Of a stretch of 64,000 nucleotides of DNA, positions 2,437 through 51,085 are shown one piece after another. The stretch spans positions 13,938 through 77,937 of the forward strand of contig JAUSCZ010000014.1 of assembly GCA_030674475.1 (NCBI GenBank). Direction: 5' to 3'. How positions within the stretch are numbered: the first letter of the stretch is position 1; every line of letters begins with the position of its first letter. The notes under the pieces were generated by a model. It worked only from the letters and a program-made list of their open reading frames with translations. It was not told the DNA's origin and did not search any database. A program made the position numbers and the translations under genes. This DNA is from Candidatus Omnitrophota bacterium. GTDB lineage: Bacteria; Omnitrophota; Gorgyraeia; Gygaellales; UBA12090.

Positions 2437-2503
2437 AATGATTCAAAAGTGGTTTTTCAGCCATTAGTTGTAAGCTGATAGCCGATAGTTGATAGCTAAA
2501 AAT

Positions 2504-7278: not shown

Positions 7279-7300
7279 TGAGGTAGCAGCATGAAAATGT

Positions 7301-7424
7301 CTAATGTCTAAATCCGAATGACGAATGAATACCTAATGCCCAAATTCCTAAATGTCCAATTTAGGAGCTCTTTCGTTATTTGGTCATTTAAGGAATTAGT
7401 CATTCGTTCGGCATTCGTCATTAG
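7301..7424. repeat. ~125-bp heptamer-periodic imperfect inverted repeat between the dCMP deaminase gene and nrdR
   Basis: Left arm CCGAATG ACGAATG AATACCT AATGCCC AAATTCC TAAATGT CCAA. Right arm TTGG TCATTTA AGGAATT AGTCATT CGTTCGG CATTCGT CATTAGG. The inner 17 bp are near-perfectly complementary. Confidence 0.6.
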
Positions 7425-7474
7425 GAATTCGCCATTAACGGTCTACAACACATATTATACGAGGGGATTTTATA

Positions 7475-11190: not shown

Positions 11191-11199
11191 TATATTAGA

Positions 11200-11475: not shown

Positions 11476-11477
11476 AT

Positions 11478-14369: not shown

Positions 14370-14397
14370 CCATTTCTTACGTCTATATAAGTAAGGA
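14347..14397 (+). promoter_or_regulatory. promoter-like cassette, copy 2
   Basis: AAAATATTTTTGCACGAAAATAGCCATTTCTTACGTCTATATAAGTAAGGA. Overlaps the 3' end of the anti-sigma ORF and precedes a 28-codon ORF and spoVG. Confidence 0.5.
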
Positions 14398-14503
14398 CAG
14401 AAATTATGGCAGGAAAGGCTGTAATTGGGATGTCCGAAACTTATCCCGCCGCTTTGCTTCGGAAAACGAAGCTGGGGGGTGCATTTGAGTAGGAGGTGGC
14501 AAG

Positions 14504-14767
14504 ATGGTAGAGGCAAGCGATATTCAGGTGGCTCGGCTCTTTAGGGTCGAGAAGGAAGGCAGTAAGCTTAAGGCCTTTGTAGATTTAGCCATAGGCGGCT
14601 GTCTCATTGTCAAAGGGTTTAAGATAATGCAAGGCCAGGAAGGCTTGTTTGTAAGTATGCCCAGCCAGCCAGGCAAAGACGGTAAATGGTATCAAGTGGC
14701 CTTGCCTGCCACTAAAGAAAAAGGACAGGAGATCAGCGAAATAATCCTCTCGGCCTACAGAGAATAA
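14504..14767 (+). CDS. spoVG: SpoVG family protein
   Basis: VARLFRVEKEGSKLKAFVDLAIGGCLIVKGFKIMQGQEGLFVSMPS matches the SpoVG core. Confidence 0.85.
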   Translation: MVEASDIQVARLFRVEKEGSKLKAFVDLAIGGCLIVKGFKIMQGQEGLFVSMPSQPGKDGKWYQVALPATKEKGQEISEIILSAYRE

Positions 14768-14804
14768 ACAACAGTTTGCTTTATTTTAGCGTTAAGGTAA
14801 AATA

Positions 14805-14850
14805 ACCATAAAATAGGGATAGCTTGTTATAGCTACCCCTATTTTATGGT
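14805..14850 (+). terminator. long hairpin after spoVG (ACCATAAAATAGGGATAGCT/AGCTACCCCTATTTTATGGT)
   Basis: 19-20-bp near-perfect stem with a 6-nt loop. T-rich 5' side. Marks the left edge of the AT-rich islet. Confidence 0.5.
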
Positions 14851-14946
14851 GAAGAAAAATGGTAACATTAGTCAGATGGTAATTCTTGTTGTTTAGAGTT
14901 TCCTGTAATATAATTTAAGGTATTATGCGATGTAAATCGCTTCACG

Positions 14947-15171
14947 GTGAGGCAATGGTTAAGCGGTAAGATTGTTAAAATAGCAATAAGATTGTGTTAT
15001 TGCAGGGGGGATTCAATGCTTATGGACAATCAAACTAAACAGAATATCCGTATTGTTTTAGAGTATCTTTGGCGCGATGAAGAACGGCACTATCTTGAAA
15101 GCCGGGAGTGCAAGAAGCATATTTTTCATATTTTAAAGCATTTAGCAAAAGTTGTTAAATATGAACCTTGA
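14947..15171 (+). CDS. small hypothetical protein upstream of the DpnI-like gene (true start possibly 15017)
   Basis: ORF only. RBS GGGGGGATTCA precedes the internal ATG. Overlaps the start of the REase gene. Confidence 0.3.
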   Translation: MRQWLSGKIVKIAIRLCYCRGDSMLMDNQTKQNIRIVLEYLWRDEERHYLESRECKKHIFHILKHLAKVVKYEP

Positions 15172-15931
15172 TTTGGATAAGCGAGCAGTTGAGTCCTATA
15201 AAAGCTCTTCACAAAGGGCGAGAGTTTTAACTGAGGCGTGGGTTAATAAAGAGGCTTATTGCCCTAATTGTGGTAATGCGCGTCTTACTAAATATTCTAA
15301 TAATAAGCCTGTTGCCGACTTCTTTTGTAGAAGTTGCAATGAGGATTTCGAACTTAAAAGCAAAAAGGATTCATTCGGAGCTAAAATTGTCGATGGGGAT
15401 TATCAAGCAATGCTTAAGAGATTAGCTGATGTTCATAATCCAAACTTCTTTTTGTTAAATTACGATTTATGTTCATATCAGGTTTTAAATTTCTTTGTGA
15501 TCCCAAAGCACTTTTTTGTTCCTGAAATCATCGAGGAGAGGAAACCCCTCTCAATTGACGCGGAGAGAGCGGAATGGATAGGGTGCAATATTTTATTAAG
15601 CAGAATGCCTGAAGCAGGCAGGATTTTCTTGGTTAAGGATGGACAGGTCAAACCAAAAGAAGATGTTTGCGCGGTTTGGCAAAAAACTCTATTTTTACGG
15701 GAAAAAAAGAAGGCTGAATCGAGAGGCTGGATTTTGGATGTTATGCGCTGCATTGAAGCGGTTCGCAAGAAGGAGTTTACCCTTGCGGACATTTATAAGT
15801 TTGAGTCTATACTGTTTGAACAACACCCTGACAACAGGCATATAAAAGATAAAATTAGACAGCAGCTTCAAATATTGCGAGACAAAGGCTATTTGGTATT
15901 TTTGGGAAAAGGCAGATATGGATTAGCGTGA
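15152..15931 (+). CDS. DpnI-family (Dam-replacing family) methyl-directed Type IIM restriction endonuclease
   Basis: Aligns along its whole length with R.DpnI as I recall it: YCPNCGN, PVADFFC, FELKSKK, NPNFF, WIGCNI, GRIFLV, KIRQQLQILRDK. PD-(D/E)XK N-domain plus a winged-helix C-domain. Confidence 0.75.
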   Translation: MLNMNLDLDKRAVESYKSSSQRARVLTEAWVNKEAYCPNCGNARLTKYSNNKPVADFFCRSCNEDFELKSKKDSFGAKIVDGDYQAMLKRLADVHNPNFFLLNYDLCSYQVLNFFVIPKHFFVPEIIEERKPLSIDAERAEWIGCNILLSRMPEAGRIFLVKDGQVKPKEDVCAVWQKTLFLREKKKAESRGWILDVMRCIEAVRKKEFTLADIYKFESILFEQHPDNRHIKDKIRQQLQILRDKGYLVFLGKGRYGLA

Positions 15932-18708: not shown

Positions 18709-18757
18709 CCTGCCTGCCGGCAGGCAGGGTTTGGCTTCCTATAGCCAAAGCCATAAG
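18709..18757. repeat. composite REP-like element: CCTGCCTGCCGGCAGGCAGG palindrome plus GGTTTGGCTTCC-N3-AGCCAAAGCCATAAG element
   Basis: Perfect 20-bp palindrome at 18709-18728, with a second palindromic unit directly after it. Both families recur elsewhere in the window. Confidence 0.7.
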
Positions 18758-18818: not shown

Positions 18819-20792
18819 GTGGCAAAATCATTAGTAATTGTGGAGTCACCGGCCAAGGCCAAGACTATTTCTAAGATATTAGGCAGTGGTTTTGAGGTTA
18901 TTCCTTCCATGGGCCATGTGGTGGATTTGCCCAAGACCAGGATGGGGGTGGATATTGAGAATAATTTCGCGCCTCATTTTATCGTGGCCGCCAAGCGTAA
19001 AAAGACCTTAAGTGAGATTAAGGCCGCGGCCAAAAAGGCGGATAAAATATATCTGGCTACTGACCCGGACCGGGAAGGCGAGGCGATTGCCTGGAATATC
19101 AAGGAGAAGCTAAGCCAGAATAAGAAATATTTCAGGGTGGTCTTTCATGAGATTACCCCTCAGGCTATAAAAGAGGCTTTTAAACATCCCGCGGATTTAA
19201 ACGTTCAGAAGGTAAATGCCCAGACCGCCCGAAGGGTTTTAGACCGCTTAGTGGGTTATCTATTGAGCCCGCTTCTTTGGCGTAAAATTGCCGGAGGTCT
19301 TTCCGCCGGACGGGTGCAGTCAGTCGCTCTTCGGCTGATTGTGGAGCGGGAAAGGGAGATTCTTAAGTTTATGGCTCAGGAATATTGGGAAATCACCGCC
19401 GAACTTAAGCATAAAGCAGGAACATTTTTGGCGAAGTTGGAGAAGATTGAGGACAAAAAGGCCGAGATTAAGAATGAGCAAGACGCCCAGAGGATAGCAG
19501 AGGACTTAAAAGGAAAACAGTTTGTGGTGGCTGATGTTCGAGAAACCGAGAAAAAGAAGAATCCTCTGCCTCCCTTTATCACCAGCACCTTACAGCAGGA
19601 CGCCTTTTATAAATTAAGGTTTTCCAGCGCCCGCACTATGCTGATAGCTCAACAACTTTATGAAGGAGTTGAACTGGGAAAAGAAGGAGCAGTGGGTTTA
19701 ATTACCTATATGCGCACCGATTCGGTGAATGTGGCCCAATCTGCCATTAAAGAGGTCCGCGGTTTCATTCAGGAAAAGTTCGGCCAGGATTATCTCCCTG
19801 AGTCTCCTAATCTTTATAAATCCAAAAAGCAGGCCCAGGAGGCCCACGAGGCCATCCGTCCGACTTCGGTTTCCCGTGCCCCGGAGTCGGTTAAGGAATC
19901 TCTGGCTACCGAGCAGTTTAAGTTATACACCTTGATTTATAACCGTTTTCTGGCCAGCCAGATGAAGCCGGCTATTTATAATGTTACCAGCATAGATATA
20001 CGCGCCGATAAGTATCTTTTCCGGGCCTCGGGCTCAAAGTTAATCTTTAAGGGATTTACTGCCGTCTATGAACTGCAGGAAGAAAAAGAGGAGAAAAACA
20101 CCCTGCCATCTTTAAAAAAAGAGGAGTTGTTGGAGTTGGTTAAGCTTCTTCCCTCCCAGCATTTTACCAAGCCGCCGCCGAGATTTTCCGAGGCTTCTTT
20201 GGTTAAGACCTTAGAGGAAGAAGGTATCGGCCGGCCCTCTACCTATGCCCCGACCATCCAGACCATAGTTTACCGGGATTATGTCCGCCGGCTTAAAGGG
20301 TATCTTCATCCCACGGAATTAGGGTGTAAGGTCAGTGACCTTTTGGTGGAGTATTTTGCCGAGGTAATAGATATCAAGTTTACCGCCGCTATGGAAAATG
20401 AGCTGGATGAGGTAGAAGAAGGCAACATAGAGTGGGTTAAGGTAATTAATGATTTTTACGCCCCCTTTAAAGTAAAGCTGGATTACGCCAATGAGGTTAT
20501 CCAGAAAGAGGTAATAACTACCGATGAAATTTGCGCCACCTGCGGCAAGCCGATGGTGGTTAAATGGTCAAGAAAGGGTAAGTTTTTGAGTTGTTCGGAT
20601 TTTCCTAATTGCCGCTATGCTAAATCCATAACCACTGGGATAAAATGTCCTCAGGAGGGTTGTTTGGGTGAGTTGATTGAGCGCCGGTCCCGCCGGGGAT
20701 TATTTTACGGTTGTACCAAGTATCCCAACTGTACCTATACCGCCAAGACTCTTCCCGAGGAAAAGACTGAGGAAGAAAAGCAGGAAAAATGA
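18819..20792 (+). CDS. topA: DNA topoisomerase I
   Basis: TOPRIM (LVIVESPAKAKTI), catalytic domain, and C-terminal Cys4 zinc ribbons (CATCGKPM..., CPQEGC...). GTG start. Confidence 0.95.
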   Translation: MAKSLVIVESPAKAKTISKILGSGFEVIPSMGHVVDLPKTRMGVDIENNFAPHFIVAAKRKKTLSEIKAAAKKADKIYLATDPDREGEAIAWNIKEKLSQNKKYFRVVFHEITPQAIKEAFKHPADLNVQKVNAQTARRVLDRLVGYLLSPLLWRKIAGGLSAGRVQSVALRLIVEREREILKFMAQEYWEITAELKHKAGTFLAKLEKIEDKKAEIKNEQDAQRIAEDLKGKQFVVADVRETEKKKNPLPPFITSTLQQDAFYKLRFSSARTMLIAQQLYEGVELGKEGAVGLITYMRTDSVNVAQSAIKEVRGFIQEKFGQDYLPESPNLYKSKKQAQEAHEAIRPTSVSRAPESVKESLATEQFKLYTLIYNRFLASQMKPAIYNVTSIDIRADKYLFRASGSKLIFKGFTAVYELQEEKEEKNTLPSLKKEELLELVKLLPSQHFTKPPPRFSEASLVKTLEEEGIGRPSTYAPTIQTIVYRDYVRRLKGYLHPTELGCKVSDLLVEYFAEVIDIKFTAAMENELDEVEEGNIEWVKVINDFYAPFKVKLDYANEVIQKEVITTDEICATCGKPMVVKWSRKGKFLSCSDFPNCRYAKSITTGIKCPQEGCLGELIERRSRRGLFYGCTKYPNCTYTAKTLPEEKTEEEKQEK

Positions 20793-21661
20793 TTTCGGAA
20801 ACAGATCGGCATATTGAAAAATACATTCGCTATCTGGAAATTGAAAAAAACGCCTCGGAACATACTATTTTGAATTATAAAAAAGACCTGGAAGAATTTA
20901 AGAAATTCCTGGGAGAGGCCCAAATAGAAAACGTCAGTTACCTTACTTTAAGGAAATTCTTAAGCACCTTAAAGGAAAGAAGCCTTAAGAGCCGTTCCAT
21001 ATCCCGAAAGCTTTCCTCTTTGAGGAGTTTTTTCAGATTTCTCAACCGCGAAGGCTTCTTAAAGAATGATCCCACTTCGGCCATATCCAGCCCGAAATTA
21101 GAAAAACATCTGCCGATTTTTCTCACTGAGGATGAAATAACCAGATTAGTGGAATCCCCGGACACCAAAGAGTTGTCGGGATTCAGGGATAGGGCAATTT
21201 TAGAAACCTTTTATTCTACCGGTATGCGGGTGAGCGAGCTGATAGGTTTGAATCAGGAGAATATTGATTTCTTCGGCGGAGTGACTAAGGTTATGGGTAA
21301 AGGCAAGAAAGAACGCCTGACGCCGATTGGGGACAGGGCTCTACAGGCTATCCGGGAGTATTTAGAGCGCCGCGATAACTCTCAGCCGGCGGTTTTCCTG
21401 AATAAGAATGGCCGCAGATTAACTGCCCGGGGAGTGCGCGTGATTCTAGATAAGTATGTGCGAATTCTGGCCTTGCGGGAAAACATCTCGCCGCATAGCT
21501 TGAGACATTCTTTTGCCACCCATCTTCTCAACCGGGGCGCGGACCTGCGCTCGGTCCAGGAGCTCTTGGGACATGCTAACCTTTCAACCACTCAAATTTA
21601 TACCCATCTGACCACCGACAGGTTAAAAAGCGTATACGATAAAGCCCATCCGCGGGCGTAG
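20789..21661 (+). CDS. xerC: tyrosine recombinase XerC/XerD
   Basis: SAM-like N-domain plus catalytic R..HxxR..Y (HSLRHSFATHLL...LGHANLSTTQIYTH). Confidence 0.9.
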   Translation: MISETDRHIEKYIRYLEIEKNASEHTILNYKKDLEEFKKFLGEAQIENVSYLTLRKFLSTLKERSLKSRSISRKLSSLRSFFRFLNREGFLKNDPTSAISSPKLEKHLPIFLTEDEITRLVESPDTKELSGFRDRAILETFYSTGMRVSELIGLNQENIDFFGGVTKVMGKGKKERLTPIGDRALQAIREYLERRDNSQPAVFLNKNGRRLTARGVRVILDKYVRILALRENISPHSLRHSFATHLLNRGADLRSVQELLGHANLSTTQIYTHLTTDRLKSVYDKAHPRA

Positions 21662-21669
21662 AAAATAGT

Positions 21670-21713
21670 TATCAGCTTTCAGCTTTCAGCTGTCAGCCGA
21701 TAGCCGATAGCCG
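21670..21713. repeat. heptanucleotide tandem array abutting the waaA start codon
   Basis: TTCAGCT TTCAGCT GTCAGCC GATAGCC GATAGCC GATG. Ends directly in the ATG with no SD-like sequence. Confidence 0.8.
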
Positions 21714-23003
21714 ATGTTCATCCTTTACGATTTTATTTTTATAATTTTTGTTTTACTGTATTTGCCGGGTTTTATTTTTAGAGGAAAATTTCACCCGGGG
21801 TTTTTGAACCGTTTGGGATTTTTTCCGAAAGATGTCCAAAATAGCTTAGCCGGAAAGCGTCCAATATGGCTGCATATGGTAAGCGTGGGAGAGGCACAGG
21901 CCTTAAGGATTCTTCTGGAGAAACTGCGCAAGGAGTATCCGGACAGAAAAATTGCTCTTTCTACGGTTACCCCGACCGGAAATAAAATTGCCAGGTCAAT
22001 AGCTGTTGAAGGCGATTTAGTCTTTTATCTTCCTTTGGATATAAGTTTTATCGTTAGATCCGTGGTGGATTTGATTAATCCCTGTCTTTTTGTTATTGCC
22101 GAGACCGAAATCTGGCCAAACTTAATAATGTATCTTACTACACGCGACATTCCGATAATCAGCGTAAACAGCCGGATATCCGATAAGTCTTTTAAAAGCT
22201 ATGCACTGATTAAATTCCTGCTCCAGGGTATCTTAAACAAAATAAGCTTTTTTTGCGTCCAAACCCAGACGGATTCCCAGCGCCTGTTGGCTTTAGGGGT
22301 TAATCCAGAGAAGATAAAGCTGACCGGGAATATGAAATTTGATAACGCGGATTTCGCGGAGAAAAAAAACAACGCAGATTCCGCGGATACAAGAAAACGT
22401 ATGCTCGCTTTAAAAGAAAAGGATACTCTTTGGGTGGCGGGAAGCACGCATCCGGGCGAAGAAGAAATCATCCTGGGAGTGTATAAAAACTTATTGCCGG
22501 AATTTCCTTTTTTAAAACTCCTTATCGCCCCTCGCCATCCTGAGCGGGCCAGGGAGATAGAAAAAGTAGTTCTTAATTATGGTTTTGATTCCGTATTTAT
22601 TTCCAAACTGCGACCATCGACTATTGACCATCGACCATCGACTATTTTTATTCTGGATACTATCGGCCAGCTTAAGGATTTTTACGCTGCCTCAGACATT
22701 GTTTTTATAGGCGGCAGCCTGATAAGAAAGGGCGGGCAGAATATTTTAGAACCGGCCCTCTTTTCCAAGCCGATTATCTTTGGGCCGTATATGTTTAACT
22801 TTCGGGATATCGCTGAACTTTTTCTTGTCTCAGGCGCCGCGGTCTTAGTAAAAGATAAAGAGGAATTGAGAGAAAAGATAAAAGATTTGTTGCTTCATCC
22901 GGAGTCTGCCTTAGAACTTGGCCGCCGGGCCAAGGAGTTATTACTGAAGAACCAAGGGGCCAGCGAAAGAAATATGGAAATTATAAAACAAGTTTTGGGT
23001 TAA
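21714..23003 (+). CDS. waaA: 3-deoxy-D-manno-octulosonic acid (KDO) transferase
   Basis: IWLHMVSVGEAQAL and C-terminal GT motifs. N-terminus resembles E. coli WaaA. Contains an in-frame 21-nt heptamer-based duplication at 22611-22652 (RPSTIDH/RPSTIFI). Confidence 0.9.
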   Translation: MFILYDFIFIIFVLLYLPGFIFRGKFHPGFLNRLGFFPKDVQNSLAGKRPIWLHMVSVGEAQALRILLEKLRKEYPDRKIALSTVTPTGNKIARSIAVEGDLVFYLPLDISFIVRSVVDLINPCLFVIAETEIWPNLIMYLTTRDIPIISVNSRISDKSFKSYALIKFLLQGILNKISFFCVQTQTDSQRLLALGVNPEKIKLTGNMKFDNADFAEKKNNADSADTRKRMLALKEKDTLWVAGSTHPGEEEIILGVYKNLLPEFPFLKLLIAPRHPERAREIEKVVLNYGFDSVFISKLRPSTIDHRPSTIFILDTIGQLKDFYAASDIVFIGGSLIRKGGQNILEPALFSKPIIFGPYMFNFRDIAELFLVSGAAVLVKDKEELREKIKDLLLHPESALELGRRAKELLLKNQGASERNMEIIKQVLG

Positions 23004-23005
23004 AA

Positions 23006-24034
23006 TTGATGAAGGATTTTTTTTTAGAGATTGCCCTGAATAGAAAAAAAGGGCTGGCCGCTTTTTTTTTAAGGCCGCTGTTATATCTTCTATCGCTTAT
23101 TTACGGGTTATTGGTCAAAGGGATTTGCTGGGTTTATAAACGCGGAATACTTCCTGGATATAGGCCTCAAGCTAAGGTAATCAGCGTGGGTAATATTACC
23201 CTGGGTGGAACCGGCAAGACCCCTTTGGTTGAATTCTTGGCTGAAGCCTTACTGCGTAAAGGCAAAAGGGTGGTTGTCTTAAGCCGGGGTTATAGCCTGG
23301 ATGAGCCGCGGATGTTAGAGAATAAAATAAAGGGCTTAAGGGTATTTACCGGAAGGGACAGGATAAAGACAGCCAAAGAAGCCCAGGATGCCCTTGATCC
23401 TGAGGTGATGATTCTGGATGACGGCTTTCAGCACTGGCGGCTAAAGAGGGATTTGGATATTGTTTTACTGAACAGCCGTAATTATTTCGGCAATAGAAGT
23501 CTTATCCCCAGGGGTATATTGAGAGAACCGCCTTCTTCTTTGGCCCGCGCGGATGTGATTGTAATTTCTAAGGTAGATTCTGTCAAGGATATATCCCTGA
23601 TAAAAAATGAATTGGGACAAATCAATCCCAGGGCCTTGATTGTGGAATGCGCGTATAAGCCGGAGTGTGTCACGGACGCCCAGGGAAAGGTGTATGCTTG
23701 GGGTATTATTGAGAATAAGAATATTTGTCTTTTAAGCGGTATCGCCGACCCGGATTATTTTAAGAAGACGGCCTCTGATTTAGGCGCGCGGATAGTCTCG
23801 GATCAGCGTTTTCCGGACCACCACCAATACCATAAAGGCGATATTGAAAAGATTGTTCGGGCCTGCCGAAAGAAGAATGTGGACACGATAGTAACTACCG
23901 AAAAAGATCTCACTCGCCTTCCCCTGAGTGAGTTTGCTTCGGATATAAAGATCCTTATTTTAAAGATAAAGTTGGTTATAACCCACAATGAAGAAAGCCT
24001 CTTTAATCGAGTATTTGGCTTATTGGCTGGTTAG
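23006..24034 (+). CDS. lpxK: tetraacyldisaccharide 4'-kinase
   Basis: GNITLGGTGKTP P-loop and ~340 aa length. Confidence 0.9.
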   Translation: MMKDFFLEIALNRKKGLAAFFLRPLLYLLSLIYGLLVKGICWVYKRGILPGYRPQAKVISVGNITLGGTGKTPLVEFLAEALLRKGKRVVVLSRGYSLDEPRMLENKIKGLRVFTGRDRIKTAKEAQDALDPEVMILDDGFQHWRLKRDLDIVLLNSRNYFGNRSLIPRGILREPPSSLARADVIVISKVDSVKDISLIKNELGQINPRALIVECAYKPECVTDAQGKVYAWGIIENKNICLLSGIADPDYFKKTASDLGARIVSDQRFPDHHQYHKGDIEKIVRACRKKNVDTIVTTEKDLTRLPLSEFASDIKILILKIKLVITHNEESLFNRVFGLLAG

Positions 24035-25907
24035 GTTCTTCAGCTTAGTAGTGATTGCCTTGCCGCCCAAGGCTAATTTTATCCTGGGTAGAGCCCTGGG
24101 TGTCTCCGGCTATTATCTGCTTAAGAAAAAAAGAAACCTGGCGCTTAAGAATTTAAAGACTGTTTTCCGGGATGAGTTTGAATATTGGCAGATAGAGCGT
24201 CTCGCTAAGAAGGCGTTTATCAGCCTGGCCCTGAATATCATTGAAGCCTTATATATCCCTAAGATAGACTCTCGTTATATAAACAAGCATATCCGGATAG
24301 AAAACCTTAAATTTCTGGATGAGGCCTTAAAAAAAGGAAAAGGAGCCATTCTTTTGGCCTATCATTTAGGCAACTGGGAGTTGTCTAATATTACCTGTAG
24401 TCTGGAGGGGTATGAGTATAAGGTTATTGTGAATGAGCAAAGGTATCCGCTTTTAAATGAACTTTTAAACCGCTACCGCCAATCTAAAGGCTGTAAAATC
24501 ATTCCCCGGGGAATGGCCTTAAGGGAAATCATTAAGGCTTTAAAAAGTAATCAGGTGGTGGCGATGGCCGGAGACCAGGGTGGCAAGGAAGGTTATCTGA
24601 GTGAGATGTTTGGTTTGCCAATTTCCACGCCTAGCGGTTTTGTCAGGTTTGCCGCAAATACCCACTCCGCGGTAATCCCGGCTATTATTGTCAGAGAACG
24701 CAGGTTTTATCACCGGATTATCCTGGAGGCCCCGCTTGAGCTGGAGGGAAAAGATGAAACAGAGACCTTAGAAAATTGTTTGCGTAAGTCCAACGCGATC
24801 TTAGAGCGGTATATCCGCGAGTATCCCCAGGAATATTTCTGGTTTTATAAAATATGGAAATATTCGCCTTTCAGGAAGGTGATAGTTTTATCCGACGGCA
24901 AGGCCGGACATCTGAGGCAGATGGAAGCTTTACAGAAAATAGCTGATGGTTTAGGATTTAGGGTTTATAGCAAGATTGTAGAAATAAGGTTTAGAAACAG
25001 GTTGGCAAAAATCCTGGCTAATGTGTGCGCCGGGTTTGGCCTGGATATTTTTGAGCTGTGTATAAGCGAAGAATCTTATTTGGCTTTAAGGAGAGCGAGC
25101 GCGGATGTGGTTATTTCCTGCGGCGCGTCTTTGGCCGGGCTTAATTTGGCGATAGCCAGGGACAACCTGGCCCGTTCTGTCTGCGTGATGAATCCGGGCA
25201 TCGCGGGAAGAAGGAGATTTGATTTAGTGATTATGCCTAAGCACGATGGCTCGCGGCATCAGAAAAATACCGTAATTACTGATGGCGCCCTTAATTTAAT
25301 CGATCAGGATTATTTAAGTCAGCAAACCCAGGGCCTTCTTAAAGTGATTACTCCGGATAGAGCCTTGAAAAATTCTATCGGCGTATTAATCGGCGGGGAT
25401 ACCAAAAAATATAAATTAACCCAAAGATTAATCACGGTGGTTTCCTCCCAGATAAAAAAGGCGGCCTCGGACTTAGGGATGGATATATTGCTTACTACTT
25501 CCCGCAGGACGTCCGATAAGGCAGAGGAGATAATTAAAAAAGAATTTGGCGGCTTAAAGGAATGTCCGCTTCTGGTGATTGCCAGGGAAAAAAATATCCC
25601 GCAGGCAGTAGGAGGGATTCTGGGGTTATGCGAATGTGTGGTTGTCTCCGGCGAGAGTATTTCAATGGTCTCGGAGGCGGCGGCTTCCGGTAAGTATGTC
25701 CTGGTTTTCAGGCTTAAAGGCACTTATTTAGGTAAAGAGGGCAGGCACGAGCGATTTTTAAGAAATTTGGAGAGTGAGGGCTATATCCGGATAACCCAAC
25801 CTGAAAATATCGCGGATAAAATTAAAGAGCTTATCCGGGATAAACCACCGATAAAGAAATTGGATGACCGGGCCAAGGTTAAAGAAGCGATGAGGAAGCT
25901 GTTATGA
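23988..25907 (+). CDS. lipid A late acyltransferase (LpxL/HtrB family) fused to a DUF1022/ELM1-like domain
   Basis: N-terminal half has the LpxL-type HX4D region (LAYHLGNWEL). C-terminal half (VIVLSDGKAGHLRQMEAL...) resembles the COG3660/DUF1022 family. Confidence 0.7.
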   Translation: MKKASLIEYLAYWLVRFFSLVVIALPPKANFILGRALGVSGYYLLKKKRNLALKNLKTVFRDEFEYWQIERLAKKAFISLALNIIEALYIPKIDSRYINKHIRIENLKFLDEALKKGKGAILLAYHLGNWELSNITCSLEGYEYKVIVNEQRYPLLNELLNRYRQSKGCKIIPRGMALREIIKALKSNQVVAMAGDQGGKEGYLSEMFGLPISTPSGFVRFAANTHSAVIPAIIVRERRFYHRIILEAPLELEGKDETETLENCLRKSNAILERYIREYPQEYFWFYKIWKYSPFRKVIVLSDGKAGHLRQMEALQKIADGLGFRVYSKIVEIRFRNRLAKILANVCAGFGLDIFELCISEESYLALRRASADVVISCGASLAGLNLAIARDNLARSVCVMNPGIAGRRRFDLVIMPKHDGSRHQKNTVITDGALNLIDQDYLSQQTQGLLKVITPDRALKNSIGVLIGGDTKKYKLTQRLITVVSSQIKKAASDLGMDILLTTSRRTSDKAEEIIKKEFGGLKECPLLVIAREKNIPQAVGGILGLCECVVVSGESISMVSEAAASGKYVLVFRLKGTYLGKEGRHERFLRNLESEGYIRITQPENIADKIKELIRDKPPIKKLDDRAKVKEAMRKLL

Positions 25908-25909
25908 CA

Positions 25910-25977
25910 AGCTATCAGCTATCAGCTATCAGTAATCAGCTGAAAGCCGAAAGCTGAAAGCCGAAAGCTGAAAGCCG
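25910..25977. repeat. heptanucleotide tandem array abutting the start codon of the GT4-GT9 gene
   Basis: AGCTATC x3, AGTAATC, then AGCTGAA/AGCCGAA alternating x5, ending ...AGCCGATG at the ATG. Confidence 0.8.
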
Positions 25978-28065
25978 ATGAATATTCTGCAAATATTGCC
26001 TGAACTTAATTACGGCGGGGTGGAGACCGGAACGGTGGACTTGGCTAAGTACTTAGTCAAGGCTCAGCATAAGGCGGTAGTGGTTTCCGCCGGAGGAGAA
26101 TTAGTAGATAAGCTTAAATGCTTGGGCGCTGTTCATTATTCTCTGGCAGTTAATAAAAAATCCTTATTTTCAATTGTCCGGGCTTGTTTTGAGCTGGTAA
26201 AGATTATTCAAAGAGAAGATATCCGGGTAGTCCATGCCCGTTCCCGGGTTCCGGCCTGGAGCGCTTATTTTGCCGCTAAGCTAACCAATGTCCCTTTTAT
26301 TACCACTTGCCATGGTTATTATTCCCGGCATATTTTAAGCCGGGTGATGGGCTGGGGAAAATTAGTGATTGTGCCCAGTCAGATAATCGGAAGGCGCATG
26401 ATTGATGATTTCGCGGTATCCCCGGAGAGGATAAGGTTGATACCGCGCGGTGTGGATGCCGAAAATTTTACCTTTATCTTACCTGAGGAAAAAAGCCGCA
26501 CCGAGTTCGTGATTGCTTTTATCGCCAGGATTACTCCGATAAAGGGACATCTTTATTTTATCAAGGCAATCCAGCGGGTTTACCGCAGTATTCCTAATAT
26601 TAAGGTCTGGATTATCGGCACCGCCCCCAAATCCAAGTTTCATTATAAAGAGGACCTGGAGATTCTGGTCAAGCGTTTGGGATTGGCGCATATCGTTGAA
26701 TTTTTAGGCAAGAGAAACGATATCCCTCAGCTTTTTTCTAAAATCAATCTTTTGGTTATGGCCTCAACTACCCACGAGGCCTTTGGCCGGGTGATTGTCG
26801 AGGCTCAAATCTCCGGGGTTCCGGTAGTGGCTACCCGGGTAGGAGGGGTGGTAGACATTGTCGAGGATGGCGTGGATGGCCTCCTGTGCGTTCCTAAAGA
26901 TTCTGAAGGTATGGCTGAGGCAATTATCAGGATTTTAAGGGATAATGAGCTAAGCTCTCTATTAGCCAAAAACGGCCATCTTAAAGCGCTTTCAAAATTC
27001 AACTTAGAGAAGATGGCTAAAGACACCCTGGAGGTTTATCAGGAGGCAGTTGGTTTTAAAAGAATTCTGATAATAAAACTGAGCGCTTTGGGCGACCTTA
27101 TCCTTTCGATTCCGGCCTTGAAGGCGATACGTAAGAAATACCATTCTCCTCATAAGATAACCCTGCTTACCGGAAAGGCGATAGCCGCGGTAGTAAGTAA
27201 TTGTCCTTATCTGGATGAGGTAATGGTGTATGATTTTAATGAGAGCGATAAAGGCATCTTCAAGCTTTTTCACCTGGGTAAGGAATTAAGAAGAAAGAAT
27301 TTTGATATGGTCGTTGACCTGCAGAATAATCGCAAGAGCCATATCCTCTGCGCCCTTTCTTTAGCCTCGCTAAGATGCGGCTATCAAAATAAGAAGTTTA
27401 GCTTTTTGCTTAATCGTAAGGTCAAAGAAGATAAATTTATCCTGGGCCCCCTGGAACATCAGTTCCGGGTTTTAAATCTGTTGGATATTGAACTCAAAGA
27501 CAGAAAGATTGAACTTTGGCCTTCAAAAGAGGATGAGAGATATATTGATGATTTTTTAAATTCAGAATGGTTGAGCGGGAGTCAGATTTTGGTGGGGGTC
27601 CACCTTAGTTCTTCCCAGAAATGGCTTACCAAGCGCTGGCCGCTGGAATATGCCGCCCATTTGGTTGAAGAGCTGGCTTTAAGGGATATTCGCGTGGTTT
27701 TAACCGGAGAAAGAATGCCTCAAAATGAGTTGAGAGTTTTTAACGAGATGGCCAAGAAGTCTAAGCCGATTATCGCCTGCGGAAAAACCACCATCAATCA
27801 GCTGGCCTGCCTGATTAAACGTTGTAATGTATTTATCTCAGGCGATACCGCGCCTTTACATATTGCCTCCGGAATCGGCACGCCGGTAATCGCGCTATTC
27901 GGCCCGACTGACCCGCGCCGGCATATCTCCTCGGAGAAAGACGCGTTGATATTAAAAAAAGACTTAGAGTGTCAGCCCTGCTATAAGCCAAAATGCGTAT
28001 CCATAGAGTGCATGAAGAAGATAAGCGTGGATGAGGTCAAAGAGGCGGTATTAAAGCTATTATGA
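25978..28065 (+). CDS. fusion of a GT4 glycosyltransferase (N-terminal) and an ADP-heptose:LPS heptosyltransferase (GT9, C-terminal)
   Basis: GT4 C-terminal motif EAFGRVIVEAQISGVPVVATRVGG. GT9 N-terminus RILIIKLSALGDLILSIPAL and C-terminus LHIASGIGTPVIALFGPTDP. Confidence 0.8.
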   Translation: MNILQILPELNYGGVETGTVDLAKYLVKAQHKAVVVSAGGELVDKLKCLGAVHYSLAVNKKSLFSIVRACFELVKIIQREDIRVVHARSRVPAWSAYFAAKLTNVPFITTCHGYYSRHILSRVMGWGKLVIVPSQIIGRRMIDDFAVSPERIRLIPRGVDAENFTFILPEEKSRTEFVIAFIARITPIKGHLYFIKAIQRVYRSIPNIKVWIIGTAPKSKFHYKEDLEILVKRLGLAHIVEFLGKRNDIPQLFSKINLLVMASTTHEAFGRVIVEAQISGVPVVATRVGGVVDIVEDGVDGLLCVPKDSEGMAEAIIRILRDNELSSLLAKNGHLKALSKFNLEKMAKDTLEVYQEAVGFKRILIIKLSALGDLILSIPALKAIRKKYHSPHKITLLTGKAIAAVVSNCPYLDEVMVYDFNESDKGIFKLFHLGKELRRKNFDMVVDLQNNRKSHILCALSLASLRCGYQNKKFSFLLNRKVKEDKFILGPLEHQFRVLNLLDIELKDRKIELWPSKEDERYIDDFLNSEWLSGSQILVGVHLSSSQKWLTKRWPLEYAAHLVEELALRDIRVVLTGERMPQNELRVFNEMAKKSKPIIACGKTTINQLACLIKRCNVFISGDTAPLHIASGIGTPVIALFGPTDPRRHISSEKDALILKKDLECQPCYKPKCVSIECMKKISVDEVKEAVLKLL

Positions 28066-28082
28066 TAAGCGCTAAGAATAAC

Positions 28083-28222
28083 CAAACACCAAATCCCAAA
28101 TTACAAATAATAATCAATAATCAAATCCCAATAACCAAACCAAGATAGATTCTTCGTTTGGATGATTGGTTATTGATGTTTGGAATTTATTTGGTGCTTG
28201 TTATTTGGTTATTGGTGATTCA
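28083..28222. repeat. heptamer-periodic long imperfect inverted repeat in the 5' leader of the GT4 gene
   Basis: Left arm AATAACC AAACACC AAATCCC AAATTAC.... Right arm GTTTGGA TGATTGG TTATTGA TGTTTGG ... TTGGTTATTGG. The arms are largely complementary. Confidence 0.65.
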
Positions 28223-28223
28223 G

Positions 28224-30131: not shown

Positions 30132-30163
30132 GTAGGGGCGAACCTGCGTGTTCGCCCGAATAA
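30132..30163. repeat. GTAG-headed REP-like hairpin (GTAGGGGCGAAC-CTGCGT-GTTCGCCC-GAATAA)
   Basis: Near-identical copy at 42221-42252 (1-nt difference in the loop). Both sit directly after stop codons. Confidence 0.7.
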
Positions 30164-34617: not shown

Positions 34618-34671
34618 GAAATAGCTTTCAGCGGTCGGCTCTCGGCTTTCAGCTAAAAATTGATTATAATA

Positions 34672-38174: not shown

Positions 38175-38186
38175 AGAAAGTTAACA

Positions 38187-38714
38187 GTGAACAGAGTACA
38201 GATAACAGAAAAAATAAAAAAGATAAAATTGCTTATTCTGGATGTGGATGGAGTGCTTACTGACGGCAGGATAATTTATGATTCTCAGGGCCGGGATTCC
38301 AAGTTTTTTGATGTTCATGACGGCCTGGGGGTGTATCTTTTAAAAATGGCGGGGATTAAAACCATCCTGATTACCGCTAAAGGTTCAAAAACAATTAAAC
38401 CTAGAGCCAAAGATATGCGGGTTGAGGAGTTTTACGAAGACATTTTTCCTAAAACAAAAGTTTTGGCTAAAATTCTTAAAAAACACCGGATAAAAACTGA
38501 GAATATCTGTTTTATCGGTGATGATTTGGTGGATTTAAGCATAATGAAGGCGGTGGGCTTTCCGGTGGCTGTGGCCAACGCCAGCGAGGATATCAAGGCC
38601 GCCGCAAGTTATATTACCCAAAAAAAAGGCGGCCGGGGCGCGGTCCGGGAGACAGCTGAGCTGATTTTAAAGACTCAAGGTAAATGGCGGAAAGCAATTA
38701 GTATATATCAATAG
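38187..38714 (+). CDS. kdsC: KDO-8-phosphate phosphatase (HAD superfamily)
   Basis: LLILDVDGVLTDGRIIYD...GDDLVDL motifs and ~175 aa length. Confidence 0.85.
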   Translation: MNRVQITEKIKKIKLLILDVDGVLTDGRIIYDSQGRDSKFFDVHDGLGVYLLKMAGIKTILITAKGSKTIKPRAKDMRVEEFYEDIFPKTKVLAKILKKHRIKTENICFIGDDLVDLSIMKAVGFPVAVANASEDIKAAASYITQKKGGRGAVRETAELILKTQGKWRKAISIYQ

Positions 38715-41541: not shown

Positions 41542-41606
41542 AAGAGCTTTCAGCCTTCAGCAGAAAGCAGAAAGCAGAAAGCTGTTTAACGGAGGAGGAC
41601 ATTAAG

Positions 41607-46422: not shown

Positions 46423-48222
46423 ATGACAGCGAGAAATCAGAAGCTAATAAAAATTTCTTTACTGGTTACTGGTTACTGGTTACTTTTCTCCGCGCATTGT
46501 TTCGCTGAAAAGATAACCATCCTTTACACCGGGTCAACCCATGCCGCGCTCTATCATTGTGATTGTCCGGTTCAGCCGGACGGCGGAGTGGGCCGGAGAA
46601 TGGCTAAAGTCAAAGAGCTGCGCGATAAGAATCCTAATGTTATTTTGGTAGACGCGGGAGGATTCTTTGCCGGCGGGGAGCCGGATGAACACAGCCAAGG
46701 CGTCCAATTAGATAAAACGCGCACCGAAATCAACCTGAAGGCCCTTGAGCTTATGGGCTATGACGCCGTGGCTGTCGGTGATGATGAATTTAACTTTGGC
46801 CGGGATTATTTATCCGCTCAAATCAAAAAATCAAAGATTGCCTTTTTATCCTGCAACTTGAAGATGGATGGCCTGAAGCCTTATCTGATTAAAAAAGTGT
46901 CTGGCCTTAACGTCGCTCTTATCGGCTTAACCAATCCTCAAACCAAGGCTAAGTCGGACGGATTGGAAGTAGAGGACCCCTATCAGGCCTTAGCCAGAAC
47001 TATTTCTGAGGTCAAGACAAATAAGGCTGATCTGGTGGTAGTTTTAAGTTATCTGGGGGAAGAAGAAGATACTAAGTTGATTACCCAGATTGACGGTGTG
47101 GATGTTATTGTCTCTGCCAGGCCTCAGGACAGTAAAGAGCCTTTCAGCAAAATCGGCAAAGGTATCCTGGTCCGGGCCTCCTGGCAGGGAAGGCATTTAG
47201 GAAAATTGAATATGGAGTTGGAGAATAAGAAGATAAAAGAAACCAAAGTAGAAGATATCCGTCTATCTAATGAAATAGCCGATTGGCCCCAGCTAAAAAA
47301 ACAAGTGCCGGCCTGTTTTGAGGATTCCGCCTGCCGTAAGGAGGGCTTAATCGGTAAATGCCTTAATCCCGGCAAGATCAACTCTTCTTGCGGTTATGAG
47401 AAACCCAAACAGATTTCTCTTTTGGTTATCCAGCCCAAAGATATAAAAGACGTTCAGCAGGAAAAATTTTTAAGCTTCTTAAGGAAGCTTTTTCCGGGAT
47501 TACAGGTTAATTTTGTTGATTCTGATTCCGCGGCTGGTAAATCCTGGATAGTAAGAACTCAGGCCAAGCTTTTGCCGGTGTATCTGATTGCCAAGGAGGC
47601 GGATACGCAAGGGGAATTCAAGGATATCAAGGATTTTGCCGAGCTAAAAGATGATTATTATTGTCTAAGCCCGCGGCTTTCCGGCGGCCTGATATTCATT
47701 GGCCGGCCCAGGATAGCCCATACCTTAGATGTCTTTATGGGAACTAAAGGCAATAAAGGCTCAGAGGTCTTATCCTTGTTAAGAGACCTCCGGGCCGGGC
47801 ATAAAGAATTAGGTATTAAACTGCATTATCTGGCAATTGAGACTCAAAATGGTTTCGCCGCCCCCGGCGGCATAGCGGAATTAGAAGAAGATATGAGGCA
47901 GGTTTGCCTCGGTAAATATCAGCCGGATAAGCTCTGGGATTACGCTTTGTGCCGTTTCAAAAATCAGGATAGTTCCTGGTGGGAGGTGTGCGCCGAGCAG
48001 TTTGGGATTAACCCGACAGCGATCAAGAAATGCGCTCTTTCCCAGGAAGGGTTGGATTTGTTACGAGAAAACATTGGATTGAATAAAGAGCTGGAAATAT
48101 CCATCGGGCCGGTGTTTTTGGTGAATAATAATGAGGTATACGCGGCTAAAAATTTCAGCCGGGTTGAGGAGTTGGAAAAACTCCTGGGTTTAGTCGGCCA
48201 TATAGAAAAAAATAAGGATTAA
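46423..48222 (+). CDS. secreted 5'-nucleotidase/calcineurin-like metallophosphoesterase with a C-terminal thioredoxin-like region
   Basis: Signal peptide. UshA-like blocks ILYTGSTHAALY, DAGGFFAGG, GYDAVAVGDDEFNFG. Has an in-frame TGGTTAC x3 heptamer triplet at 46464-46484. Confidence 0.55.
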   Translation: MTARNQKLIKISLLVTGYWLLFSAHCFAEKITILYTGSTHAALYHCDCPVQPDGGVGRRMAKVKELRDKNPNVILVDAGGFFAGGEPDEHSQGVQLDKTRTEINLKALELMGYDAVAVGDDEFNFGRDYLSAQIKKSKIAFLSCNLKMDGLKPYLIKKVSGLNVALIGLTNPQTKAKSDGLEVEDPYQALARTISEVKTNKADLVVVLSYLGEEEDTKLITQIDGVDVIVSARPQDSKEPFSKIGKGILVRASWQGRHLGKLNMELENKKIKETKVEDIRLSNEIADWPQLKKQVPACFEDSACRKEGLIGKCLNPGKINSSCGYEKPKQISLLVIQPKDIKDVQQEKFLSFLRKLFPGLQVNFVDSDSAAGKSWIVRTQAKLLPVYLIAKEADTQGEFKDIKDFAELKDDYYCLSPRLSGGLIFIGRPRIAHTLDVFMGTKGNKGSEVLSLLRDLRAGHKELGIKLHYLAIETQNGFAAPGGIAELEEDMRQVCLGKYQPDKLWDYALCRFKNQDSSWWEVCAEQFGINPTAIKKCALSQEGLDLLRENIGLNKELEISIGPVFLVNNNEVYAAKNFSRVEELEKLLGLVGHIEKNKD

Positions 48223-49642: not shown

Positions 49643-49766
49643 TGCGCTGTTAATTTGATTTTTAATAAGACAGCGCACAGAGCAATTGAGCAATAGACAA
49701 TAGAACAATAGACAAACAAAAGCTCAATTGCGGTCTAATGCTCTATTGTTCAAAAACTAATTTTAA

Positions 49767-51038
<1,272 letters not shown>

Positions 51039-51040: not shown

Positions 51041-51085
51041 GCTTATAGCTAATGGCTTTTCACTATAAGCCATAAGCCATAAGCA
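51041..51085. repeat. palindromic heptamer array ATGGCTT ATAGCTA ATGGCTT ... ATAAGCC ATAAGCC ATAAGCA upstream of hppA
   Basis: GGCTTAT-type heptamers on the left and their reverse complement ATAAGCC repeated on the right. Confidence 0.7.

Follow-up and report, generated by a model that had tools for sequence, protein, structure and literature searches.

Heptanucleotide tandem arrays in intercistronic spacers and coding loops of Candidatus Omnitrophota

A 64,000-nucleotide (nt) stretch of the Candidatus Omnitrophota contig JAUSCZ010000014.1 (positions 13,938 to 77,937, hereafter the window) carries dispersed tandem arrays of 7-nt units, one of which, the focal element, fills the spacer between a XerC/D-type recombinase gene (xerC/D) and waaA and runs into the waaA start codon. 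These arrays are a real, non-random feature of the DNA. We assign them to the short tandemly repeated repetitive (STRR) type of heptanucleotide repeats, that is, to long simple sequence repeats (SSRs), which are lineage-wide in Candidatus Omnitrophota and written into permissive DNA, a reading to which we give a probability of about 0.55. Duplication and homogenisation with a fixed 7-nt, less often 8-nt, register has written arrays of three to six units into tolerant DNA, namely co-directional stop-to-start spacers and a few variable protein surface loops. The arrays show concerted evolution, with units that are alike within an array and different in the orthologous arrays of other species. 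Relatives differ in array length by whole units, namely by 7 nt in a spacer and by 21 nt inside waaA. An earlier note, made from the letters of the stretch, had already likened the arrays to STRR sequences; this comparison is correct and its description accurate.

Period-7 arrays in the window and in related loci

Period 7 stands far above chance in the window, which confirms the heptamer arrays that were first noticed in the letters. The Tandem Repeats Finder (TRF) scan that had been suggested returned 53 rows, 17 of them with period 7, and covered nearly all of the listed positions (2473-2497, 7296-7311, 7407-7436, 21672-21697, 21695-21715, 25910-25941 and 25938-25978, followed by 28109-28124, 41559-41582, 49691-49715 and 51065-51084). 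Five strict lag-7 clusters, defined by at least 13 of 14 matches, were found against 0.03 in dinucleotide-preserving shuffles; four of the five are intergenic, and each other period from 4 to 15 gave zero or one such cluster. In the window, the excess over shuffled sequence therefore holds. Across 29 short intergenic regions, identity at lags 7 and 14 is 0.337 and 0.300, over a background of about 0.26; the coding sequence of the window has no peak at either lag, only the usual 3-nt ripple. Fifty kb around waaA of Escherichia coli K-12, scanned as a control with identical TRF settings, gave eight rows and none of period 7.

The arrays are dispersed over 12 sites of the window between 2.4 and 51 kb, nearly all of them in short spacers that separate genes of one strand. 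They comprise a main unit family, AGCYGAW/WTCRGCT, and four to five minor ones, and unit families within this one genome are unrelated to each other (AGCYGAW, AATGTCT, CCAAATN, CAATAGA and ATAAGCC). Two of the originally listed elements are to be described differently. The degenerate array at 34623-34655 can be read in the sequence as 4.6 units but lies under the TRF threshold, and the element at 28083-28222 is heptamer-periodic, yet forms one long hairpin rather than a simple array.

The host is Candidatus Omnitrophota, as shown by the genome matches of WaaA, and the earlier remark that the gene content does not look cyanobacterial was right. WaaA is 87% identical to that of Candidatus Omnitrophota UBA12090 and 83% identical to that of 'Omnitrophica bacterium GWA2_41_15', and among its best 80 genome matches, 78 are Omnitrophota or obviously mislabelled relatives. 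The comparative set consists of 80 genome and 80 metagenome loci around waaA, which together with the window make up 1.95 Mb. Non-redundant TRF arrays in this set number 36 for period 6 (9 intergenic), 230 for period 7 (105 intergenic), 100 for period 8 (26), 155 for period 9 (18), 79 for period 10 (16) and 53 for period 14 (34). Period 7, together with 14, is the dominant intergenic tandem-repeat class of the set, in which about 12% of the DNA is intergenic. The test of a genome-wide distribution covers the 64-kb window and the 160 related loci.

Arrays occupy 67 of 554 co-directional spacers and 1 of 76 convergent or divergent ones (Fisher p = 0.0024). They span the spacer from stop to start, beginning 0-10 nt past the stop codon and finishing 0-15 nt before the next start. 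Upstream of waaA, there are 90 unique spacers, of which 61 are at least 25 nt long; 30 of those 61 are 7-periodic, with units that are specific to a clade or species (AGTTCAT, ATAGCGT, TAGTCCA, AAGTTAT, TAGNAGT and others).

Arrays inside coding sequence

Of the new observations, the most informative is that arrays within essential genes keep exclusively to a 7/8-nt register. TRF detects 7- and 8-nt arrays inside open reading frames (ORFs) at the same relative position in orthologs, with different units. The in-frame array of the window's waaA (Table 1) is located between '...FISKL' and 'IFILDTIGQL', a site that is hypervariable in the protein alignment. When aligned with the solved WaaA structure of Aquifex aeolicus (2XCI), eight residues of the encoded loop (rpstidhr) fall opposite a gap. 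One relative (L082) has an array of equal length with C/T unit changes, and another (L083) is without exactly 21 nt, or three units. Among 147 unique waaA loops, 16 are strongly 7-periodic, mostly with 39 nt, and 14 strongly 8-periodic, mostly with 42 nt; none of the 147 has period 5, 6, 9, 10, 11 or 12. Shuffled loops give about 0.05 for each period. The DNA topoisomerase I gene topA, which is generally essential in bacteria, carries loop arrays of AGTTCAC, AAGCCTC, AAGTCAC or AGTCCAC units, or of the 8-mers GACACCAG and AAAGTGTC; the topA loop array is absent from the window and from L002.

Relative positions of the arrays in the orthologs of L001-L161 are 0.69-0.70 in waaA, 0.30 in topA, 0.27 and 0.90 in lpxK, and about 0.73 in the acyltransferase/ELM1 gene. 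A small hairpin, CTCACTCGCCTTCCCCTGAGTGAG, lies at 23909-23932 inside the 3' end of the window's lpxK, at relative position of about 0.9, where L004 and L045 have the perfect arrays TTACGAG x5.3 and CTATGGA x4.3.

Frame-incompatible units of 7 and 8 nt are used where frame-neutral lengths would be easier, and the register is therefore likely to be imposed by the mutational process. This suggests that a mutational mechanism, not selection, sets the unit length, and we infer that selection filters only for frame, in three-unit steps, and for loop length. We postulate that strand misalignment in replication or repair produces 7-8-nt loops that would escape mismatch repair. The register may be set by an enzyme rather than by selection, because only 7 and 8 occur in genes although 6, 9 and 12 are frame-neutral. 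In this account, the hairpin architecture arises where both arms of a short palindromic seed expand.

Perfect arrays of four to five non-3n units inside lipopolysaccharide (LPS) genes, at conserved positions and in many species, are also what contingency loci would look like, and slipped-strand expression variation of LPS genes had been among the functions first proposed. In such loci, frequent slippage would switch or tune the LPS genes, including through the 7/8-nt arrays in waaA, lpxK and the acyltransferase gene. LPS genes are classic phase-variable targets in host-adapted bacteria (PMC2651432), and concerted evolution implies that unit turnover is ongoing. The switching proposal is nevertheless not supported. 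The 159 waaA ORFs that were called are all intact, with no frameshift and no OFF allele, and array-length indels are absent from near-identical contigs of 99.4-99.99% identity (L001/L083/L141, L023/L130, L044/L158, L004/L089, L054/L145 and L098/L099). Coding arrays differ by 21 nt, which preserves the frame, and a 7-nt change in an intergenic array leaves the reading frame intact. The waaA array is positioned at 70% of the gene, not near its 5' end, and similar in-frame arrays are present in topA. Nor are the intergenic arrays specific to LPS genes, since they also precede a sua5/yrdC-like gene, nrdR, a pfkB kinase gene, clpP, purA and the gene of an H+-pyrophosphatase (H+-PPase), and housekeeping genes are preceded by them as often as LPS genes. 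A role of the arrays as LPS phase-variation switches is disfavoured, and we regard contingency loci as the least probable of the accounts considered here.

Several observations weigh against duplication and homogenisation in permissive DNA as a sufficient account. Generic slippage should favour 3n coding units and single-unit steps, and a coding step of 21 nt requires that several units change at once or that the frame is temporarily shifted. The density of coding arrays is raised about 35-fold in waaA/lpxK/lpxL-like genes, with 45 arrays (11.8 per 100 kb) in the group of waaA, lpxK and acyltransferase genes, 7 (3.5 per 100 kb) in topA, 5 (2.4 per 100 kb) in glycosyltransferase genes and 3 (about 0.3 per 100 kb) in the remaining ~0.9 Mb of ORFs. 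A 'permissive loop' as the cause of this concentration in few genes is an after-the-fact explanation. Unit pairs with at most one mismatch account for 26% among sites of one genome and for 5% between genomes; such genome-specific families are not predicted by purely local slippage and may reflect dispersal, a common preference for certain targets or a constraint of the individual genome. The lack of length variation at 99.4% identity or more makes the process slow or episodic. Direct-only arrays, which are not phylogenetically independent, contain TAG 71 times on the sense strand against 18 for CTA, a bias that could reflect an RNA-level role. Finally, the gene calls in the loci are crude longest-ORF calls.

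A more specific mechanism, which we consider quite unlikely, would be a replication or repair activity that, by a kind of templated insertion, 'stutters' several 7-/8-nt units at once, in a fixed register and even in topA and waaA. It would be mechanistically linked to the 20-nt palindromes that are nested in arrays (see below), and inverted arrays might secondarily bridge stop and start for coupling without a Shine-Dalgarno (SD) sequence. Such an activity would operate in Omnitrophota and perhaps in heterocystous cyanobacteria and Beggiatoaceae.

Hairpins, start codons and turnover of the spacer arrays

The focal sequence reads TATCAGCT TTCAGCT TTCAGCT GTCAGCC GATAGCC GATAGCC GATG and continues into the waaA ATG at 21714, whose A and T are provided by the last unit. 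Its predicted fold reaches -17.0 kcal/mol in sense (21659-21725, z-score -3.0) and -26.9 kcal/mol in antisense (z -6.2), the latter with 6-bp helices separated by 1x1 mismatches. The palindromic array upstream of the GT4-GT9 gene has a left arm of AGCTATC x4.6 and a right arm of AGCTGAAAGCCGAA x2.9, and the region 25905-25985 folds with -28.5 kcal/mol in sense (z -5.6) and -36.7 kcal/mol in antisense (z -6.7). Both hairpins are 8-10 kcal/mol more stable as antisense because A-C mismatches of the sense strand become G-U pairs. In the main family, left arms follow (AGCT NTC)n and right arms (AGCY GAN)n, with an AGCY core in each unit and a CAGCTG centre. The arms pair as 6-bp helices with one mismatch per seven nucleotides, as expected if they had been homogenised independently after diverging at one or two positions.

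The remaining window elements vary in structure (Table 1). Upstream of nrdR, the left arm (AATGTCT...) and the right arm (...TTCGKCA) of the hairpin are both heptamer-periodic, and the fold reaches -40.1 kcal/mol (z -4.6, 7290-7439). The arms of the hairpin at 28083-28222 are A/C-rich on the left (CCAAATN) and T/G-rich on the right (ATTTGGN), with -45.7 kcal/mol in sense and -48.8 kcal/mol in antisense; its left arm (28066-28157) does not fold significantly alone. The array behind the trigger-factor gene is followed by GGAGGAGG, the SD sequence of clpP, and folds with -17.7 kcal/mol (z -2.4, 41540-41610). Upstream of purA, a separate GC-rich hairpin (49643-49677) precedes the array, and the region 49643-49769 has z -4.8. 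The region 51036-51106 reaches -20.9 kcal/mol (z -2.7), and folds of 2437-2500 and 34615-34662 are not significant. By RNA folding z-scores, structure is significant in six of the window elements, while three more are direct arrays only, so that the proposed pairing of left and right halves into imperfect palindromes is borne out for several arrays.

Table 1. Heptamer arrays and hairpins of the window (x, number of unit copies).
Feature	Coordinates	Strand	Units	Setting
Direct array	2471..2497	+	AGCTGAT/AGCCGAT/AGTTGAT x3.6	just 5' of sua5/yrdC-low-molecular-weight (LMW) phosphatase gene
Long imperfect hairpin	7296..7436	+		between dCMP-deaminase-like gene and nrdR
Focal element	21670..21716	+		occupies 52-nt xerC/D-waaA spacer
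Focal half-arrays	21672-21697 (left), 21695-21715 (right)	+	left TCAGCTT x3.7, right AGCCGAT x3.0; CAGCTG centre	
In-frame array	22611..22642	+	CGACCAT x4.6	inside waaA, encodes variable loop RPSTIDHRPST (residues 300-310)
Palindromic array	25910..25978	+		spacer from lipid A acyltransferase/ELM1-like gene to GT4-GT9 gene; runs into ATG 25978
Long hairpin	28083..28222	+		between GT4-GT9 gene and next GT4 gene
Degenerate direct array	34623..34655	+	AGCTTTC AGCGGTC GGCTCTC GGCTTTC AGCT	5' of pfkB-family kinase gene
Direct array	38183..38209	+	AACAGAG x3.9	junction of kdsD-like and HAD (kdsC-like) genes
Hairpin array	41546..41585	+	AGCTTTC AGCCTTC / AGCAGAA x3.4	directly after trigger-factor gene
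In-frame array	46459..46484	+	TTACTGG x3.7	36 nt into ORF 46423-48222 (no Pfam match)
Hairpin	49680..49751	+	CAATAGA/AGAGCAAT	5' of purA
Hairpin	51041..51085	+	GGCTTAT... vs ATAAGCC x2.9	after purA, then SD sequence of H+-PPase gene

The arrays are operon-internal. Promoter-like and terminator-like sites are absent from the four spacers 21662-21713, 25908-25977, 28066-28226 and 34618-34659, and between 20.5 and 40.4 kb no array spacer holds a terminator-like match (GC-rich hairpin plus U-tract), the hairpins being followed by the next start codon. Clear sigma-70-like promoters are instead located in longer, array-free spacers. A promoter or terminator role of the arrays was rejected on the evidence of these four spacers; the one weak promoter-like match (9/12), at 38202-38229, overlaps the AACAGAG array. 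A known structured RNA was rejected as well, with no tRNA, tmRNA or Rfam family found.

The stability of the significant sense folds (z -2.4 to -5.6) raises the possibility that the arrays serve as intercistronic RNA hairpins, either bridging stop and start for coupling or reinitiation or acting as mRNA stabilisers or processing sites akin to repetitive extragenic palindromes (REPs), with the heptamer being merely a way to build a stem. The stem at 25905-25985 begins 3 nt after the stop codon and finishes 2 nt before the ATG. Arrays are nearly confined to co-directional spacers, and REPs lie mainly 3' of ORFs, between unidirectional or convergent genes (PMC3733652). Close relatives hold a different palindrome, GTAGGGGCGGTTCGCGAACCGCCCCTAC, at the focal spacer, so that some hairpin is kept there. 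The L002 ortholog has a strong sense fold of -38.6 kcal/mol. Across the survey, an inverted partner within 150 nt accompanies 32-48% of intergenic arrays, against 3-18% in reversed/complemented controls, but it is present in only this fraction, and many direct arrays have a minimum free energy near 0. Array spacers fold alike on both strands in the Omnitrophota loci (-20.6 vs -20.7 kcal/mol, p = 0.9), unlike non-array spacers, in which the sense strand folds better (-23.5 vs -20.7 kcal/mol, p = 1.5e-24). There is thus no sign that the sense transcript of arrays is under selection. The focal hairpins are in fact better antisense folds, the left-arm changes between the window (AGCTATC/AGTAATC) and L002 (AGCAATC) have no compensating change in the right arm, and an intercistronic role is impossible for the arrays inside coding loops. 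We consider functional intercistronic hairpins unlikely as the general explanation, and favour arrays written into permissive spacers.

Start codons were a second part of the earlier proposal. As it described, the arrays at waaA and at the GT4-GT9 gene continue up to and into the ATG (...AGCCGATG), with no SD-like sequence between, and the waaA start is confirmed by the conserved N-terminus MFILYDFI. Other starts that follow an array without an SD sequence are 28227, 34660 and 49770, and those with one are 7475, 41607 and 51104; clear GGAGG-type SD sequences exist at many window genes. The idea that the array removes the SD sequence does not hold up. Most waaA orthologs inspected have no strong SD sequence, including those in which the upstream stop is only 2-8 nt away, and the share of spacers with an SD-like motif before waaA is 33% for period-7, 42% for other and 10% for short spacers. 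Since a strong SD sequence is mostly missing at waaA whether or not an array is present, none was displaced by the array, and SD-independent, probably coupled, waaA initiation appears to be ancestral. The focal hairpin would keep the xerC/D stop near the waaA start, and translational coupling could survive such an insertion. The effect of the focal array on expression is probably small; waaA starts without a strong SD sequence in most of these orthologs. The sua5/yrdC-LMW phosphatase gene likely starts at the ATG near 2504, and the GT4 gene after the 28083-28222 hairpin probably starts at ATG 28227, not TTG 28158, an example of how arrays inflate ORF calls.

SD-less translation could also be governed by a protein. 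The units would then be successive binding sites of a protein that covers about 7 nt of single-stranded nucleic acid (a HutP-like reader of NAG-N4, ribosomal protein S1 or a protein with a cold-shock domain). This would fit genome-specific unit families and the TAG-rich sense strand of direct arrays, as in the CAGTAGG TAGNAGT TAGTAGG clade 5' of waaA. Similar proposals exist for the Beggiatoaceae TAACTGA repeats (PMC4679880) and for Nostoc heptamers that overlap start codons (bioRxiv 10.1101/2022.06.06.494920). Such a reader is improbable, given several unrelated unit families in one genome, units that vary freely between species at one site and coding-loop arrays in frame-incompatible units; no candidate binding protein was identified, and the TAG bias comes largely from related species at one orthologous spacer.

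The clade concerned (L098, L133, L143, L153, L154, L042, L109 and L140) has C-poor direct arrays 5' of waaA. They read CAGTAGG TAGNAGT TAGTAGG TAGAATA TAGGG, with TAG on the sense strand every 7 nt and an SD-like GGGGA end, form no hairpin (minimum free energy 0) and look conserved over several species. Two general models of the unit were rejected: a mini-hairpin with a self-complementary 4-mer core and 3-nt loop fails with a palindromic 4-mer in 37.2% of units against 37.5% of shuffled ones, and an all-frame stop rule, by which a stop codon in the unit would close three frames, fails with a sense stop in 44.9% of units against 45.0%.

Turnover distinguishes time scales. The only other contig from an exact-protein look-up, in the independent Logan assembly of SRR13727527 (L081), is 100% identical to the window over 7,628 bp (20034-27661) including the focal element, and thus uninformative on polymorphism. 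The suggested comparison of copy numbers gave no differences at 99.4% identity or more, and a 7-nt difference between the window and L002, whose ortholog of 25910-25978 differs by one unit (at 25938-25978) and by unit-level substitutions. Relatives with 94-97% identical waaA DNA (L082, and also L083, L141 and L001) have a different xerC-waaA spacer element, in which AATAAAATTGATTAA comes after the palindrome GTAGGGGCGGTTCGCGAACCGCCCCTAC. L002, which is more distant, holds a heptamer hairpin that belongs to the window's family. Between species, arrays thus differ by whole units, and another palindrome can take the place of an entire array. The lack of change between strains makes them long-lived at the strain scale. 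The megablast gap census breaks at divergent spacers and therefore under-samples array indels between species-level relatives. Of the functions first proposed, a recombination or turnover hotspot is the best-fitting part, in view of the unit differences between species and the whole-spacer swaps.

GC-rich palindromes that begin with GTAG (GTAGGGGCGAACCTGCGTGTTCGCCC...) occur in the window at 30133-30158 and 42222-42250. In the xerC-waaA spacer of L001, L082, L083 and L141, the GTAG overlaps the xerC stop codon. L002 has heptamer hairpins at the sites of the window's GTAG palindromes, and vice versa.

A small palindrome of 20 nt, CCTGCCTGCCGG(C/T)AGGCAGG, has 30 copies in the 1.95 Mb, 17 of them inside ORFs. 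Window copies lie at 18709-18728, 28738-28757, 45133-45156, 48271-48290 and 59933-59948, with a related one at 56064-56084, and further copies were seen in L007, L017, L092, L097, L100 and L139. The window copy within the GT4 gene is read in frame as the peptide TCLPAGR and has CAGAGAACAGATAA on both sides, that at 48271 is nested in another palindrome, and the AACAGAG unit family of 38183-38209 also flanks the palindrome at 28738. In other species, the palindrome is found within 7/8-nt arrays of spacers and of the waaA loop, or nested in other palindromes. Elhai and colleagues are said to have described in 2008 small dispersed repeats in Nostoc that parallel such palindromes nested in heptamer arrays. 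An origin of the units as target-site duplications of the CCTGCC...GGCAGG palindrome was rejected, as array-free insertions have no flanking duplication.

These palindromes and the whole-spacer swaps between heptamer hairpins and GTAG-type palindromes in close relatives bring small non-autonomous mobile elements into consideration, either similar to transposable elements of the miniature inverted-repeat type (MITEs) or to REPINs, or footprints of the CCTGCCTGCCGGCAGGCAGG palindrome, spread by a transposase. The same unit family at several loci of one genome and the repeated presence of the 20-nt palindrome inside 7/8-nt arrays, with the same units on both flanks, would agree with this. However, the copies share only the unit type and have no fixed ends or length, the arrays are without the GTAG tag of REPs, palindrome insertions outside arrays show no target-site duplication, and orthologous arrays persist and change unit by unit. 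A Pfam scan of about 40 window ORFs revealed no gene for a REP-associated tyrosine transposase (RAYT) or an IS200-like/Y1 transposase. Mobile elements are a highly improbable source, and duplication and homogenisation remains our preferred reading.

Within the window, the XerC/D-type recombinase gene (20789-21661) precedes waaA (21714-23003), with the focal spacer between them. Downstream follow lpxK, a fused lipid A acyltransferase/ELM1-like gene, a GT4-GT9 fusion, GT4 and polysaccharide deacetylase genes, and then two GT9 genes, a pfkB kinase gene, kdsB-, kdsA-, kdsD- and kdsC-like genes and lptC/lptA. Almost every gene lies on the plus strand, and all 2-kb bins have a strongly positive GC skew (0.07-0.21). 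The window has no tRNA or tmRNA gene and no Rfam match over its whole length at the gathering threshold, nor any at E<=1 for 6500-7500.

Other features of the window are as follows. A perfect 43-bp tandem repeat at 38726-38825 (x2.3, score 200) contains AAGCCAA/AGCCATA heptamers and lies directly 5' of a strong sigma-70-like promoter (TTGACA-16-TATTAT, 38826-38853) before the lptC/lptA-like gene. Two 117-nt upstream regions, 6631-6747 before the dCMP-deaminase-like gene and 53201-53317 before a class I/II aminotransferase gene, are about 70% identical and both end with GGAGATTYTCAGGTG; having no Rfam match, they may be a leader common to both genes, contain a small ORF or form a regulatory RNA. 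Hairpins of CCTCCCCTTGGTAAGGGGAGG are repeated at 30817-30837 and 31315-31335, around a 614-nt stretch (30854-31467) with no ORF of at least 100 amino acids. Long 'intergenic' stretches at 11048-12243, 14370-15151 and 15152-15931 contain short unannotated ORFs, and 15152-15931 holds a gene for a DpnI-family (Dam-replacing) restriction endonuclease.

Comparison with known repeat systems

Heptanucleotide STRRs of cyanobacteria were reportedly described by Mazel and colleagues in 1990 and, to our knowledge, have been without an accepted origin or function since. The Omnitrophota arrays have the characteristics of STRRs or heptanucleotide long SSRs, with at least three tandem 7-nt copies above chance, dispersed non-coding sites and a limited number of unit families. 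Like the cyanobacterial repeats, they are short 7-nt tandem arrays with several unit families per genome, dispersed over mostly intergenic sites and of no known function. Three heptanucleotides are cited for Calothrix PCC 7601 (PMC4692102). Some Nostoc heptamers overlap a start codon's first two bases (bioRxiv 10.1101/2022.06.06.494920), as do the arrays at 21714 and 25978. In contrast, the host phylum here is Omnitrophota, and the window holds no tandem copies of CCCCAGT, TTGGTCA or CAACAGT; these units belong to the original description of STRR1-3, not to the wider class of heptamer SSRs. Inverted half-arrays over a whole spacer and in-frame loop arrays are quantified here in Omnitrophota. 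Heptanucleotides are the commonest long SSR class in prokaryotes, for which polymerase slippage has been proposed (Mrazek 2007, in the summary given by PMC4679880), and Cyanothece strains differ mostly by indels in 7-nt increments. A slippage or recombination account of the Omnitrophota arrays agrees with both.

The TAACTGA repeats of marine Beggiatoaceae, which are also present in some Cyanobacteria and Bacteroidetes (MacGregor 2015, PMC4679880), likewise precede unrelated and essential genes and differ between related strains by indels in 7-nt increments. Their arrays are placed a few nt 5' of the start, replacing the SD region, as here at 21714 and 25978. The BOGUAY genome, however, has one dominant unit and a single inverted repeat among 170 sets (PMC4679880), whereas the window and other Omnitrophota have many units per genome and a third to half of their arrays as inverted pairs. 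TAACTGA itself occurs in the window once in forward and three times in reverse orientation, as single copies and never in tandem. The GGGAATC/GGGGAYT repeats of Xanthomonas and Nostoc (Rehm et al. 2015, PMC4692102) share the heptameric unit, the non-coding excess, and the location between aligned ORFs, rarely between divergent ones. They differ in forming G-quadruplexes with a preference for four units; the Omnitrophota units have no G-tract, and GGGAATC is not tandem in the window.

REP, REPIN and GTAG palindromes (Di Nocera 2013, PMC3733652; Bertels and Rainey 2011, PMC3116915) are also short intergenic hairpins directly 3' of ORFs between unidirectional genes, occasionally intragenic, and in close relatives a GTAG-initial palindrome occupies exactly the spacer of the window's heptamer hairpin. 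The arrays differ from them in having no GTAG/CGTC tag and no fixed sequence or length, and in arms that are tandem repeats. Phase-variable SSRs of host-adapted bacteria, such as those of Haemophilus influenzae LPS genes (PMC2651432, PMC12721329), resemble the arrays as non-3n tandem repeats in or next to LPS genes. The Omnitrophota arrays show neither strain-level length variation nor OFF alleles, and they also occur in topA and at housekeeping genes.

The tandem repeats of Borgs (Schoelmerich et al. 2023, PMC9879509) are similarly pervasive, fast-evolving, independently arising and found in intergenic regions and ORFs, with a conserved hotspot in homologous proteins; their in-ORF repeats give perfect amino-acid repeats, and the host molecule is an archaeal extrachromosomal element instead of a bacterial chromosome. 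In Omnitrophota, coding arrays are built of 7-/8-nt units, and the frame is kept only over three units. Borg repeat units are said to be longer and multiples of three.

Omnitrophota are a new lineage for a known but unexplained repeat class. Full-text literature searches returned no paper that ties Omnitrophota to heptamer or tandem intergenic repeats. The arrays are not to be taken as LPS phase-variation switches without population data, and they turn Omnitrophota spacers into hypervariable markers. The use of only 7-/8-nt units where 6, 9 and 12 are frame-neutral, with three-unit steps in coding arrays, constrains the mechanism. The origin of the 7-nt register thereby becomes a question for phylogenetic profiling, namely which replication and repair genes co-occur with array density. 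As a whole, the STRR phenomenon in an unrelated, uncultivated phylum provides a second large comparative data set.

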